Positions 42,686-49,108 of a stretch of DNA of 64,000 nucleotides are shown here, piece after piece. The first letter of the stretch is position 1. Every line of letters begins with the position of its first letter. The DNA is from Curvularia clavata (taxonomy: Eukaryota). Below the pieces are notes generated by a model, which was not told the origin of the DNA, did no database searches, and saw nothing but the letters and a program-made list of their open reading frames with translations. The position numbers were made by a program, and so were the translations under genes. The stretch lies in contig CP089279.1 in the NCBI GenBank assembly GCA_023920165.1, positions 2,356,001 through 2,420,000 on the forward strand. The letters run 5' to 3'.

Positions 42686-43427
42686 AGCGTTCTATTACTC
42701 TGTTATTTTCTTTGTGTGGTTTCCTTTCTGTTTCTGTGTTATCAAAAAGCATCATATGCGCACATTTCAACAGCATGGCAAGGCTTCGGCGTTTCTGGTT
42801 TAAGTGTCTGGGAAACGCTCGGATTTGAGCTGGTTAAGTGCATCGGATTTGGTCGCGCAATGAATCGCGCGAGTATACCCAGTGGTATAGAACTGGGGCT
42901 TCCTGGAGTTACTATGTATATATGTTAAATGAGACAAACACGTTCAACCAGACGCTGCACCGCCTCATGTGATGATAAATAACACCTATACTTACGCCTG
43001 GTAGAAACAAACCATCCATCTCAGATGTCGACATGACTCTTGAAACTGTTGGATGAGAATACTATTGGTCGCTAGGTGAAGCCCTTGCAGTACTACGCAA
43101 AACACGTGCTCACAAAAGGCATTCGTAAAAGAGCGACAATTGTGAGGCAGAGACTTTCGTATGAAAATCCTCATTGCAGATTGGATTGCGAACATTCACT
43201 TCACCGTAGATGTTCTCTATCTACTTCAAGTCGATGGGGCTACGGTTCCGCATCTAATGTTAGCGCGGTTCTCAATGATCTGCACGTGACGCGCCAAGCG
43301 CACTAGCGCGCACCACTCAAGCGAGCCCGTCGAAAACTATCAATTTCGAAATCTCGAACTCAGACTCTCACGACGACCATATACTAACGTTGCAGCTTCC
43401 GCACGCCGTCGAGACGCCGCAGTCAAG

Positions 43428-44346
43428 ATGAAGCTCAACATCTCCTACCCCAACAATGGCACCCAGAAGCTGATCGAAGTCGACGATGAGCGCAAGCTCC
43501 GTGTCTTCATGGACCGCCGCATGGGTCACGAAGTCCCTGGCGACAGCGTCGGCGACGAGTTCAAGGGCTACATCTTCAGGATCACCGGTGGTAACGACAA
43601 GCAAGGTTTCCCCATGAAGCAGGGTGTTATGCACCCTACTCGTGTCCGACTCCTGCTCGCCGACGGCCACTCCTGCTACCGCCCCCGCCGCACTGGCGAG
43701 CGCAAGAGGAAGTCCGTTCGTGGCTGCATTGTCGGCATGGACCTTTCCGTCCTGGCTCTCAGCATCGTCAAGAAGGGTGACGAGGACATTCCCGGCCTTA
43801 CCGACATTGTCCACCCCAAGCGCCTCGGTCCCAAGCGCGCCACCAAGATCCGCCGCTTCTTCGGTCTCAGCAAGGAAGATGATGTGAGTTCTCTCATAGC
43901 TTCTTCGCCAATCCTGCTTTATCTAGCGGATTGAGTCTCGCTCTTTCCTGCTATCAGCAGCGCATTGAGTCTGAGCAAGAAGTGAGCCTAGAAATTATGA
44001 AGGTTTGAGCACTAACAATTACATTTGTAGGTCCGCAAGTTCGTCATCCGCCGTGAGGTCCAGCCCAAGAAGGAGGGCGCTAAGCCCTACACCAAGGCCC
44101 CCAGGATCCAGCGTCTGGTTACTCCTCAGCGTCTGCAGCACAAGCGCCACAGGCTCGCACTCAAGCGCCGCCGGGCGGAGGCTTCCAAGGATGCTGCCGT
44201 ATGTGCCTCCCTTTACTTCTCTATCGAACCAAAGGCTAACAATGTGGCAGAACGAGTACGCTCAGATCCTTTCCAAGCGCATCAGCGAGGCCAAGACTGC
44301 CCACGACGAGGCCCGCAAGAGGAGGGCGTCTTCCATGAAGCACTAG
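43428..44346 (+). CDS. RPS6: 40S ribosomal protein S6 (eS6)
   Basis: MKLNISYP...[13 protein letters not shown]...KRRASSMKH. Introns 43884-44030 and 44199-44250. Confidence 0.99.
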
Positions 44347-44753: not shown

Positions 44754-47615
44754 TCATCTGATTACTACACCCTGCCGCTCAATGCCCCTAGCATAAGGCC
44801 CTTCCAGGATGTCGCACCCACCTAATAAACCTACTGCTCCATTGCCCAACATACCACCGGACTGCACACTACCCCGACGATCTGACCATATCTCATGGAA
44901 ACGAATCGCCATGTCACTAGCCGCAACCACAATGCATCCTTCCTCCGCACCTCTCCTTGACCAAACCCCATCTTCCCCTTTCGATCTTCCATCATCGCCA
45001 CCATTTTCTGCCTGCGCACTTTTCGTAGGGCCACCTGGATATGCAACGGCACATAGAGCACGGTTTTCATCGTACCAGGGAACGGCAACAAGTTGCTCAC
45101 AGCTCGGCCACGCGAACACAGCAATACGGTAGGGATGTTCGGGTTGCGCAAAGCCGAATGTCGCTGCTATTTCTCGCCGTGTCTGGGACCAAATGAGGCT
45201 GGTGACCTGGGCTGCGCAGTCGATGGTCGCAAGACAAGTCCCAGAGCGCGTATGGTAAAAGTGAATACATCGATCATTTGAGCCGCCGCCAATGGCAATC
45301 AGGCCGCGCTGCCAGGGGCAAAAGTCGATTGCTTTGACAGCTGCGTTTAGTGTCCAGGTGTGCTTGGCCGCGGATTGCGTGAGATGCAGCACTGAGCTGT
45401 TGCGATTAGAGACCGTGTATATGAATTCTCCATTCGGTCCTTGGCGAACATCGAGAATTGCTGCTGTTTCGTCGCCGGATGGGGGGACATGGAGGACTCT
45501 CTTTGTCTCAAAGAGATTGCAGTTGTTATCGTTTCCGCCACTGGCAAACAGTTCGCCGTCTGCAGACCATGTAAGGCCACAGATCTGCTGGCTATGGATT
45601 GTCAGGCGCGCGAGAAGAGTCATGGCTCCATGCCAGCCGAACAATGCACTCTGAGTCTCCGAAGGCCATTCTACGCTGTAGAAATAAATGTGTCCTACTT
45701 CGTCTCCGATGATCAATTCTTCAGTTGGTACGGTCATTGCCCTGTCACGGAGGGAAGGACGCTGCACAACAGTTGGTCTCCAGGACGCGCATGACACTGG
45801 CTTAGGTTGTGTGGCATCGAAGCGCGGTTCTGCATCAAACGGACTCCAGAGTGAGATGCTTCCGTCTGCCCGCCCGACAGCGAGAATGGCTTGACCACCG
45901 GAGTTGGAAGAAAAGCTCAGACACGTAACATGCCGACTCTCGGGGTGGCCGTTCGCTGGCCTGGCGTTGAGTGACTCTGGAGTGTTTACACCTTTTATTT
46001 CAGACCAGATATGCACAAGGTTACCTAAGCCAACAGCAAGGCAGTTTGAGGTATGAGAGTATGCAAGCAGGGTGCAATAGAAGTCATCACGAAGTTCTGG
46101 TGCGTCAAGAACTGTGCTTTTTGTTAGCTCCGGCAAGATCTGTCAATACTTGAAACCTATCTGAAAGGTAGGACTGGCACGGCTCTTCGCTTCTGCCGAG
46201 TCTGATGCTGTGCTTCGTTGAACTATTAGCTCGAAATTGACTACGAGTTCGTGCGACAAAGGCAAAGACAAACGTGAGCTCGAGCCGTCTCTAATCCATG
46301 CGCTATCTCGCCACACATGCTTCACCTGTGAATCGGGACCATGCTTTGGAGAGTTTTGGAAAGTCGCCAAAGACGAATGCTGGAGTATGCGATCTGTCTG
46401 GTCAATGTCCAGCGCCAGTGCAAGTCGTTGTGCGTAGACTTCTAGCTCAGCTTCAGGATCCGCTCGATTGAGGAAAGCAGACTTATACAGCGGTGCGTTC
46501 GTTCCGCTTCTGAGCATCCTACCTCTTCCCGTGGATACGGCTACCACTGTATCACTCGCAGCAGAAGGTCCCCCAACATTCCAGACTGCTCCGGCACTGA
46601 TCTGACGAGCAGCTAGAGGAATAGAGCCACGTCTCATGTTGGCATTTCTTCTGGTGGCATTAGTCCTTCCTGACATCATGGAGTATGTCTCTCGAAGCCC
46701 ACGCAGTTCTTCATTCATTCGATCGCTCCTGTGTAGTCTACGGCTGAAGGCGTCTGTGTTTGTTCGAGTACCTTTGTTAACAGCCTGTTCCCTTCTGCGA
46801 CGTGCTGTTGGGCTGTTTAGTTCGAAGCTTTCTCGGGCAACAGTAGGCGGCCGACGATAGGCGATGAATCGATCCGGCGTGCCGATCTGACCAAAGCGAG
46901 GCGATGACACCAAGCCTTGCCTGACCACCGATCGACTACATCTGGTAGGGGAACCCGAAAATCGTGAGGAGGGTCTTTGTAGTCCGTTCTGTAGGACGCT
47001 CTTCTTGACTGAGGCACCTGTGTAGCTCGAGGTAGGTAGTATATGGCTTCCAGACTTCAAAGATGCATGGATGGGCTTTTCAGGTAAGGCTTCTGACGAA
47101 AAGGAGTCGTTGCACCTTCGGGTTTTCAAAGGTAATAAGCTTTGAACTGAACTGGGAGTATGTGTTACGCTTGAATGCAATGATTCTTCATCATGTGCAG
47201 AGTCTACGCTCGTTGAAGACAGGGAACGAGCATGTGGAGAAATAAGAGAAGGAGCTAGATACGGAGAAGGTGGATCAGTAGCGGAAAGTGGTCGTGATTT
47301 GACAGGTGAATCTTCATCTGGCTGCACTGGTGAAGGATCGTAACCAGTCGCATAGAGCACTGGAACCGAGAGCGCTTCGAGACTGGATTTGTATTTGCAC
47401 TTCCAGACAGGAGATTCTGGAGTCAAGCCACGCTTGTGGGCAGCATTATCAATGTCCCGAAAGAAGAGGCAGCTTCGACTTTTGCGTGGAGATCCAGGCG
47501 TTCTTGGTGATGACCACTCCTCTGTGCTAACGGTCTTCGTAGGTGACAGTGGCGGTGTAAGGTATCCGTGGTGCAATAAAAACGCTTCATCATCAGTGTC
47601 GTTTATGTTGAGCAT
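44754..47615 (-). CDS. AMA1: Cdc20/Fizzy-family APC/C activator, meiosis-specific Ama1 type
   Basis: C-box PDRFI, LDAPELRDDFYCTLLAYS, WD40 with ASGGNDN, AAVKAI and GGGSNDR, and a C-terminal IR tail. The long divergent N-terminus and WD40 insertions fit Ama1. Introns 46273-46213 (GT-AG) and 46160-46114 (AT-AC). Confidence 0.85.
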
Positions 47616-47924
47616 TGAGGATCAAGATGAGTGAGCTAAAGCACTTGCGTAGCCCACCTCAGTGGATGTGAGGTTGCGTAAAGGAGAGCAGCCGATAATG
47701 GAATTGGACCAAGTTCTTTTACTGTTGGGTTAGTAATAACAATGGTGACTGGAGCATCAGGAATGCTGTGAGTTGTGTAGGTTTGGTAGTGTTGAGGTGT
47801 TGACAGTTGCAGTGTCTGTGAGTGGTGACGCGGGGAAGAGGTTCCTGCGCATAGTGGGGCAGCATCTCACGGAGGCTTCCACCTACAAGCAGCCGCGAAC
47901 CTGCACGTTGCTCGAGTAATTACC

Positions 47925-49108
47925 ATGGCGAGCGTAAGCATATGTTCTTTACGCATGCAGTATGAGGCTAACGACTGTAGCACGGCGTCTCACGTGGTAC
48001 GGGTCCTGTCGTGCGTTCCGAAGAGGCACGACAGAAGGAGCTTGAGCAGATTGCCCGCTACAAAGAGCTGGCAGATCTGGTCAATGCAAAGGTACCTGGC
48101 TAGCCCTTGATGATGATGCCCAGGAAAAGCTAACGTGGAACCTCGCAGATTGCTGAGAAGCAGTACACAATCGATACCCTCGGCCTGGTCACAAAACTGT
48201 TGAACGAGAATCCCGAATACTACACAATATGGAACCACCGCAGGCGCGTCCTCATGTCTCTGACAGGAGCGGAGACACCCGAACAATCACCACAAGACCT
48301 ATTGCAGGATGACTTGCAACTCACATTTGCGCTGCTGCGAAAGTTTCCCAAGTGCTATTGGATATGGAACCACCGCAACTGGCTCTTGCGCCAGGGAGAG
48401 ACATTGATGGGCGCAGAAGCGGCACACAAGCTTTGGTCGGGAGAACTACAACTCATAAACAAAATGCTGCACGCAGACAGTAGAAACTTCCATGCTTGGA
48501 GTTATAGACGCATTGTGGTGTCGGAAATTGAGCGTTTGACCGCGGATTCAGACATCCCAGAAGAGAACCCCCCAAACAGTCTCGCTGAATCTGAGTTCCA
48601 ATATACCACCAAGATGATCAAGACCAATCTTTCTAACTTTTCTGCTTGGCACAACCGCAGCCAGCTTATTCCCAAGATCCTCCTTCAGCGTAACGCAGAC
48701 TCCAAGGCGCGCCGTGCATTCCTCGATTCAGAACTATCTCTGATATGCGAGGCTGTCAACACAGACCCCTTTGACCAGTCCATATGGTTCTACCACCAGT
48801 ATCTCCTCTCCATTTTGTCTCCTTCATGTCCTTCGGATCGCCTGGTTGTTCAAGACCTGACAAATGGCGAGCGGCAAAAGTACTATGAGAATGAGATGGA
48901 GTATATACGAGAAATCTTGGAGGACGAAGCGGACTGTAAATGGATATACGAGGCGCTCCTTGGACTTGCGGAGGCGTATTTGGAGGTCGATTCCGGTACG
49001 GGTTCGTTCACAACGAAGGACATGAAGTCCTGGCTAGACGAGCTGAAGCGGTTGGATCCGTTGCGGCGAGGAAGGTGGAATGATTTAGAAAGGAGATTGG
49101 ATCTCTGA
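47925..49108 (+). CDS. BET4: Rab geranylgeranyltransferase (GGTase II) alpha subunit
   Basis: MAS|HGVSR, PPTA repeats (NPEYYTIWNHRR, PKCYWIWNHR, DSRNFHAWSYRR, NLSNFSAWHNR) and LDPLRRGRW. Two short introns. Confidence 0.95.

Follow-up and report, generated by a model that had tools for sequence, protein, structure and literature searches.

How does an AMA1-like gene of a Pleosporales fungus come to encode an intact protein when 47 nucleotides (nt), starting with AT and ending with AC, stand in the middle of its most conserved motif? The question is raised by a 64,000-nt stretch of Curvularia clavata DNA (contig CP089279.1, positions 2,356,001 to 2,420,000; the whole stretch is called the window here and its own numbering is used throughout), in which one gene on the minus strand, at 47621-44754, encodes an AMA1-like, Cdc20-family anaphase-promoting complex/cyclosome (APC/C) activator. 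We consider it very probable that these 47 nt are a genuine U2-type (type II) AT-AC spliceosomal intron of this gene.

Gene structure and identity

The predicted layout of the gene is as follows.

Exon 1: 46274..47615, minus strand; likely ATG at 47615-47613, contains DRFIAYR, its last residues are ...WIRDGSSS, and one base of the codon that follows is added (phase 1)
Intron 1: 46213..46273, minus strand; 61 nt, GT-AG, donor GTTTGT, branch-like GCTAAT, acceptor GAAG, phase 1
Exon 2: 46161..46212, minus strand; 52 nt, encodes (P)QHQTRQKRRAVPVLPF plus the AG of an Arg codon
Intron 2 (AT-AC): 46114..46160, minus strand; 47 nt, phase 2
5' splice site of intron 2: 46155..46160, minus strand; ATAGGT, with exonic CAG just before it
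Branch site of intron 2: 46123..46128, minus strand; GCTAAC, branch A at 46124, 10 nt before the last intron base
3' splice site of intron 2: 46114..46116, minus strand; CAC, followed by exonic AG at 46113-46112
Exon 3: 44754..46113, minus strand; starts A-GTT-CTT-GAC (R/VLDAPELRDDFYC; VLDAPELRDDFY), encodes the WD40 domain and ends ...GVVIR, stop at 44756-44754

Across intron 2 the minus strand reads ...cgaagagccgtgccagtcctacctttcag / ataggtttcaagtattgacagatcttgccggagctaacaaaaagcac / agttcttgacgca, and the AT...AC segment between ...RRAVPVLPF-AG and A-GTT-CTT-GAC is exactly as the initial annotation of this DNA had described it. Removal of both introns (46273-46213 and 46160-46114) yields a single open frame of 919 codons, which reads HVWRDSAWIRDGSSSPQHQTRQKRRAVPVLPFRVLDAPELRDDFYC, runs across the junctions as HVWRDSAWIRDGSSS-PQHQTRQKRRAVPVLPFR-VLDAPELRDDFYC and contains no premature stop in the mature coding sequence. 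Among the gene models that we rebuilt from coordinates, this open 919-codon frame carrying PVLPFRVLDAPELRDDFYC was obtained only by AT-AC removal, and the conserved PF[RK]V-LDAP motif is joined only when the 47 nt are taken out. Retention of the 47 nt gives PFR and then a stop (TAG), in agreement with the initial annotation, and pairing GT 46156 with AG 46112 after removal of intron 1 also leads to a stop after PFR. Intron 1 was placed by homology; in the window, our heuristic tied 46273-46213 with another candidate.

The identity of the gene as an AMA1-type activator of the Cdc20 family, also proposed at the outset, is supported by the following: 1) the downstream open reading frame (ORF) corresponds to the CDC20/Fizzy WD40 domain (PF24807, E 1.2e-60, 205.8 bits vs. 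a cut-off of 200), the best solved-structure relatives of this propeller being Slp1, FZR1 and CDC20; 2) exon 1 carries the C-box-like DRFIAYR and the protein terminates in ...GVVIR before the stop; 3) the closest named proteins are from Pleosporales, with Bipolaris proteins at 87% and 86% identity, and several relatives are source-named "meiosis-specific APC/C activator protein AMA1", and another has the source name "Meiotic fizzy-related 2". The C-box, an N-terminal DR[FY]IPxR, and a C-terminal Ile-Arg tail are features of the Cdc20, Cdh1 and Ama1 co-activators of the APC/C; our alignment of 48 ortholog sequences gives PDRFIPxR as consensus, and all 48 have the same terminal I and R. The N-terminus of exon 1 aligns with Bipolaris models that begin MNDTDD.... 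Orthology to yeast AMA1 is taken from the source names of these relatives.

Two long minus-strand ORFs cover the locus, one upstream (46143..47621, 492 codons) and one downstream (44754..46142, 462 codons). Both are in the same reading frame, divided by a lone TGA at 46145-46143, because introns 1 and 2 together amount to 108 nt. This shared frame with its single stop renders models based on read-through or on a single intron deceptively attractive. Such models would entail either one 45-nt GT-AG intron, 46156..46112, entered from the exon-1 frame (...SRASPTFQIVLDAP), or read-through or editing of the TGA, and both do give long open frames (940 codons for the former); in addition, the model P0021 from Periconia has an analogous PTVQIV junction. 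However, with intron 1 kept in this way, about 40 unconserved residues replace the motif: these 40-odd residues (RLSLPLSHELVVNFELIVQRSTASDSAEAKSRASPTFQI) have no counterpart in orthologs, and the conserved motif, which lies in another frame, is lost to them. GTTTCA is also a poor donor, and fungal A-to-I editing, as described in PMC11156358, strongly prefers a U before the edited A, whereas the A of this TGA follows a G. We therefore hold either version to be extremely unlikely.

Two other candidates were rejected. A-to-I change of the first A of the intron to a G-like base was ruled out, as the AG located 2 nt further on would shift the frame and the A itself follows a G; a nested ("stwintron") origin was ruled out as 47 nt are too short for two introns.

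The intron site in relatives

We scanned metagenome contigs with back-translated LDAPxLRDD[FY]YC, a probe wholly within exon 3 that places no condition on the intron. The scan produced at least 117 stretches (80 with 1500-base flanks, the others with 300). Adding the window gives 118 sequences, and a comparison over the 240 bases that surround the junction leaves 96 distinct ones; all survey counts below are among the matches listed. Two of the 96 were set aside, L024, which ends 3 bases before the match, and L102, which has bacterial-looking sequence 30 bases upstream. By eye, the latter reads as a bacterial ParB-type protein until about 30 bases before the fungal exon and is probably a chimeric assembly.

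All 94 resolvable loci listed encode P[FY..][RK][VI]-LDAP, contiguously in 39 and after removal of a 45-62 nt intron in 55, with the relaxed form of the motif being needed for 3 of the 55 intron-bearing and 1 of the 39 intron-less loci. The introns at this site have the following ends.

AT-AC: 34 loci (33 metagenome loci and the window), at the exact same codon position
GT-AG, identical position and phase: 18 loci
GT-AG, shifted by 2 nt: 1 locus (L044)
AT-AA: 1 locus (L067)
AT-AG: 1 locus (L074)

None of the 55 introns listed pairs G1 with a final C. The initial annotation had suggested looking for AT...AC ends in AMA1 loci across Dothideomycetes; they are kept in Pleosporales-like and in other Dothideomycetes-like loci. 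In the 34 AT-AC introns, A1, T2, G5, T6, A-2 and C-1 are present in 34/34 and A3 in 32/34, whereas the interior is unconserved, with a mean entropy of 1.83 bits over intron bases 7-22. Invariance of AT, G5, T6 and AC in all 34 loci around a free interior is far beyond chance.

Exon 2 is conserved as the initial annotation had supposed, as evidenced by ortholog proteins, by alignment with FZR1 and by the codon pattern of the 34 AT-AC loci. Distant orthologs, from Capnodiales, Lecanoromycetes, Eurotiomycetes and Sordariomycetes, all read ...VPxxPF[RK]V-LDAPxLRDD[FY]YC, the exon-2 peptide can be aligned with human FZR1 (KISKIPFKVLDAP; RKISKIPFKVLDAPELQDDFY) and with S. pombe Slp1, and the spliced product of the window has the same length and pattern as the three complete models, P0010, P0016 and P0019. 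That P462 and F463 do not vary among the 48 aligned sequences is in part a consequence of choosing rows with the motif, and is not counted as evidence. Over the six codons preceding the donor in the 34 AT-AC loci, mean entropy is 0.67 bits at the first codon position, 0.37 bits at the second and 1.59 bits at the third. This third-position wobble extends right up to the AT, and exon 2 is therefore coding and under constraint at the protein level.

We regard this coding signature as the chief objection to a functional form that lacks exon 2. In a model of that kind, the functional mRNA would skip exon 2 via GT 46273 and AG 46112, and the AT..AC would be mere coincidence. The canonical alternative 46273..46112 is indeed there, as the initial annotation had pointed out: it uses canonical sites, the exonic AG at 46113-46112 serving as the acceptor, and gives an in-frame product of 901 codons, in which 18 codons including RRAVPVLPFR are deleted. 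Skipping via the canonical sites always stays in frame because the flanking introns are in phase 1 and phase 2 and an AG lies two bases past the AC. Annotated proteins also lean this way, since most Pleosporales models go from ...DGxxS directly to L-LDAP, i.e. the exon-skipping junction; among the named Pleosporales models with LDAP, PF[RK]V is kept in 3/41 (P0010, P0016 and P0019) and missing in 38/41, many of the latter with that junction, and two further Pleosporales models are without any LDAP motif. Nevertheless, skipping would remove a peptide found in all 94 resolvable loci and alignable to human FZR1, exon 2 shows third-position wobble as far as the AT, and the AT and AC are invariant in 34 loci while the interior of the intron is not. 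The database models, moreover, are the output of predictors limited to canonical sites rather than observations: the skipping junction would be the choice of a predictor that accepts GT-AG only, their shape arises because skipping at canonical sites stays in frame, and the peptide has been dropped because gene predictors disallow AT-AC. Taken together, we deem exon skipping very unlikely to be the functional form. With a genuine AT-AC intron, a systematic annotation error would be corrected, in that 38/41 Pleosporales AMA1 models, plus models in other classes, miss a peptide that the genome encodes.

The upstream intron appears to be shared as well. In most AT-AC loci the frame is open only 19-30 codons upstream of the donor, and our heuristic search placed a GT-AG intron in phase 1 downstream of the W..D..W block, so that an exon of 49-55 nt remains. 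Such an intron was predicted in Pleosporales-, Lecanoromycetes-, Leotiomycetes- and Capnodiales-like loci, and by the same heuristic the phase-1 donor comes directly behind a DG..S-type end of exon 1, with the GTTTGT of the window recurring in five Pleosporales-like loci.

An AlphaFold2 model of P0010, built with 48 aligned orthologs, has a predicted local distance difference test (pLDDT) score of <50 at residues 444-477 and >85 in the propeller. Residues 444-477 include the exon-2 peptide and LDAP, and the model is thus uninformative on the role of the peptide; this is the most conserved stretch of the family (VPxxPFRVLDAPxLRDDYYC). We surmise that it might fold only against a partner such as the APC/C.

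Splice signals

The signals of the intron are those of the major spliceosome. Among the 34 AT-AC loci, the donor hexamers are ATATGT (16), ATAAGT (7), ATACGT (6), ATAGGT (3) and ATGAGT (2), the exon has A at -2 in 32/34 and G at -1 in 30/34, and intron length is 45-53 nt. A CTRAY-type branch (TTRAC in three) is positioned 10-11 nt from the 3' end in 33/34, and the acceptor contexts are CACAG (23), TACAG (8), TACGG (2) and AACAG (1). The minor-spliceosome ATATCC donor (ATATCCTT) was found in 0/34 AT-AC introns, and the U12 branch TCCTTAAC was not found 10-15 nt from the 3' end in the window or in any of the 34 loci; a lone CCTTAAC, in L048, sits at intron bases 7-13, beside the donor and not at the place of a branch. 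In PMC1557818 and PMC5029451, U2-type AT-AC introns are described as following the U2 consensus with an A at +1, with donors that are strongly ATAAGT. The ATANGT donors and CTRAY branch fit this description, and the intron is therefore not of the U12 type, so that the earlier assignment as U2-type, made from the ATAGGT and GCTAAC of the window, holds across the 34 loci. It also agrees with the account of Ascomycota in PMC10639083, which gives no convincing minor introns and records loss of the minor small nuclear RNAs; the statement of the initial annotation that Pezizomycotina are without a minor spliceosome stands on the same account.

Are the intron ends real?

Since non-canonical ends are often artefacts, we considered that the AT-AC ends might reflect a sequencing or assembly error, or the decay of a pseudogene. 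Contigs from three runs in three studies (X1, X20 and X12) span 46114-46160, and all keep the letters A46160 and 46114; the sole difference listed among them inside intron 2 is at position 46154. These contigs answer the check for an error at either end that had been proposed with the initial annotation, as the end letters are kept in three independent runs and are therefore not sequencing errors. With the spliced frame open over 919 codons and the same ends in 33 other distinct loci, we attach next to no credence to an error or a pseudogene.

The same three contigs are unspliced and show no joint, and the kind of data that they derive from is uncertain, RNA being only a guess. The X1 contig (3,682 letters, depth 74) carries the whole of 45900-46500 unspliced, with about 1,800 letters before and 1,280 after, and hence spans roughly the gene: both introns are retained if it is RNA, and it is a plain contig if it is DNA. 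The metatranscriptome run X9, one of three such runs listed with small shares, placed no sequence on 45900-46500 and is uninformative either way. Among database proteins with a contiguous junction, none was found whose species is also that of an AT-AC locus; in the closest pairs, identity is only 85-88%. Two Logan-derived proteins, P0168 and P0193, read contiguous ...VPILPFRV-LDAP after unrelated residues (MNFFNLLIPSVYIERNQLP...); they could stem from RNA from which the AT-AC intron, but not the upstream one, has been removed, or from genomes that lost the intron.

On either side of the gene are plus-strand ORFs that, by eye only, look like ribosomal protein S6e (43290-43934) and like a protein prenyltransferase alpha-subunit repeat protein (48134-49108; ...NPEYYTIWNHRRRVL...).

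Distribution and age

Each locus was labelled by its best match, across some 110 residues, in a set of about 95 named proteins, with identities ranging from 100% to about 50%, the weaker labels being rough; the classes are those to which we take the label proteins to belong, three having been checked. On this basis, the AT-AC loci fall as follows.

Pleosporales-like: 13 loci, all 13 resolvable ones, window included
Other Dothideomycetes-like: 5 loci
Lecanoromycetes-like: 11 loci
Leotiomycetes-like: 3 loci, one 96% identical to Pseudogymnoascus
Sordariomycetes-like, doubtful: 1 locus (L039), 29 residues matched
Lichinomycetes-like: 1 locus, 55% identity

Sordariomycetes-like loci account for 16 of the 18 GT-AG loci. 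All 6 Eurotiomycetes-like loci are among the 39 without an intron, as are 12 that are Capnodiales-like. A tree of 88 rows and 111 columns, of low resolution with many forks unresolved and with L023, L024, L028, L039, L050, L089, L093 and L102 dropped for short or missing sequence, has a Pleosporales-like clade of 13 rows that includes the window (Shimodaira-Hasegawa-like approximate likelihood ratio test, SH-aLRT, 98) and a Lecanoromycetes-like clade of 10 rows; every row in these two clades is AT-AC. When the five intron states are mapped on the tree, at least 14 changes are required, compared to 41.1 on average after shuffling. A taxonomy check places Dothideomycetes, Lecanoromycetes and Leotiomycetes within the clade leotiomyceta. 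We infer from this pattern that the AT-AC state is old, having probably turned to GT-AG in the Sordariomycetes(-like) lineage and been lost repeatedly elsewhere.

Four Leotiomycetes-like loci have a near-identical end of exon 2 (...ccaattgc.cc.ttcaa) and an intron at the same position, some 50 bases ahead of the probe match, with ends that are GT-AG in L106, AT-AA in L067, AT-AG in L074 and AT-AC in L107. L106, L067 and L074 cluster in the tree (SH-aLRT 91), and L107 has an unresolved position in that Leotiomycetes-like clade. In L067, use of the AG found 4 bases earlier would make a 43-nt AT-AG intron and add one extra residue. Each of these loci is a single contig, and it is possible that they represent a natural series of conversion steps. 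The shifted intron of L044 is a 50-nt GT-AG intron (GTATGT...GCAG) located 2 bases downstream, in phase 1 of the Val codon and inside an otherwise intron-less Capnodiales-like clade; it may reflect intron sliding or a separate gain.

How the intron may be spliced and why it may persist

We postulate that the major spliceosome would recognize CAG/ATAGGT, in effect a fungal GTANGT donor with an A at position 1, through the exonic AG and intron positions 2-6, with G5 and T6 aiding recognition of the donor. The branch GCTAAC, with its A at 46124, would then be used, and ligation would follow at the AC that lies 10 nt further downstream. In this second step, the usual G-G contact between intron ends would be replaced by one of the first A with the last C. 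Splicing of this kind would join the 52-nt exon to exon 3 and create the PF-R-V-LDAP junction that is present in every resolved AMA1 ortholog. Rescue of a G1-to-A change by a final G-to-C change has been described in yeast and human (PMC1557818, PMC11585973). As for the persistence of the intron, we surmise that it is a frozen rare intron, kept since reversion would need two matched changes and not for the regulation of AMA1.

Several considerations weigh against a genuine AT-AC intron. First, canonical splice sites are available for an in-frame product, 46273..46112, and the models of most annotated relatives have this form. Second, the 46161/46113 junction was derived from DNA, for this species and for every AT-AC locus. 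Third, the class labels come from short best matches, some of them 50-60% identical, and every locus is one metagenome contig. Finally, the A1/C-last rescue is described in PMC1557818 as less efficient than GT-AG, and with such lower efficiency some transcripts may be mis-spliced or unspliced.

The initial annotation had proposed a third, splicing-based gate on AMA1. With such a gate, the AT-AC intron would be real but deliberately inefficient, with functional AMA1 mRNA being made only under a sexual-stage condition. In this scheme the decoys would be the skipping of exon 2 via 46273..46112 and the pair GT 46156..AG 46112, the latter leading to a stop behind PFR when intron 1 has been removed. 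In its favor, AMA1 is held back post-transcriptionally in two other fungi (PMC11585973, PMC10776026, PMC4817773), the lower efficiency of A1/C-last splicing (PMC1557818) would suit a gate, both canonical decoys are present in the window, an AG follows 2 nt past the AC in 32/34 loci, and the skipped form is always in frame owing to flanking phases of 1 and 2. That AG, however, straddles two codons, its A ending Arg/Lys and its G beginning Val, so that coding alone suffices as an explanation, and two loci with TACGG are without it. The same site is GT-AG in 18 loci and intron-less in 39, and the interior of the intron, at 1.83 bits, harbors no conserved element. The consensus of the Mer1 intronic enhancer is AYACCCUY; 0 of the 11 matches in the window to a motif resembling it fall within 44754-47621. 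A frozen rare intron explains the data without a regulatory role, and we prefer it to a gate, which we consider unlikely. Rather doubtful, too, is the broader version in which a conserved kinetic gate would keep functional Ama1 out of non-sexual stages by means of decoys that yield a skipped or truncated protein. If a gate did exist, AMA1 would be under three independent post-transcriptional locks in three fungal lineages (splicing that depends on Mer1, repair of a stop codon by A-to-I editing, and AT-AC splicing), and the ancestor of most filamentous ascomycetes could already have used the AT-AC lock.

Comparison with known systems

An AT-AC intron in AMA1 would add to a rare class, 24 U2-type AT-AC introns having been catalogued by Sheth et al. 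in 2006 (PMC1557818), where the fungal AT-AC II introns described are hypothesised ones in xylanase genes. A literature search with the terms U2-type, fungi, AMA1 and ascomycete names, in which supplements were not covered, found no report of an AMA1 AT-AC intron; one paper contains both AMA1 and AT-AC, a budding-yeast review that treats them separately, and the hits for Dothideomycetes are, to go by their titles, polyketide-synthase texts on "AT-ACP". An old AT-AC intron of the major spliceosome would be traceable through fungal evolution, and the GT-AG, AT-AG, AT-AA, shifted and intron-less states at one site would provide a natural series for studying first-last nucleotide pairing and intron conversion.

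The closest likeness is to the type II AT-AC introns of animals, such as those of human SCN4A and SCN5A, which have AT and AC ends, an otherwise ATAAGT-like donor and no U12 signals, and which keep these ends over long evolutionary distances. In contrast to the animal cases, the AMA1 intron is fungal, resides in the gene of a putative meiotic APC/C activator and is known from DNA alone; at 45-53 nt it is also very short, its branch keeps a constant 10-11 nt from the 3' end, and its site has natural GT-AG, AT-AG, AT-AA and intron-less variants in relatives.

In S. cerevisiae, the engineered /AT-AC/ introns and the nested RPL30 AT-AC described by Parker and Siliciano in 1993, as cited, and by Gould et al. 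in 2016 (PMC5029451) likewise represent a fungus without a minor spliceosome splicing AT-AC, and there too the first A and last C stand in for G and G. However, the RPL30 AT-AC is described as a side product, at 1-2%, whose donor does not resemble ATAAGT (PMC5029451), whereas AT-AC splicing of AMA1 would be the sole route to a conserved protein and its donor fits the U2-type AT-AC consensus.

With respect to the gene rather than the intron, the background on which the initial annotation had drawn is sound. Splicing of S. cerevisiae AMA1 is meiotic and Mer1-dependent (PMC11585973, PMC10776026), and the two cases share the gene family and a suboptimal 5' splice site standing between transcription and functional protein; they differ in that the yeast intron has GU ends and in that the window gene has no AYACCCTY-like enhancer. 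In Fusarium graminearum, the premature stop of FgAMA1 (PSC33) is restored by A-to-I editing (PMC4817773, PMC10776026), making it another AMA1 ortholog whose genomic frame is broken unless its RNA is processed in a non-standard way; the spliced frame of the window gene, in contrast, has no in-frame stop, and the processing would be splicing instead of editing. With AMA1 already known to be held back post-transcriptionally in budding yeast and Fusarium, the idea that weak splicing restricts it to meiosis in other ascomycetes is now directly testable.

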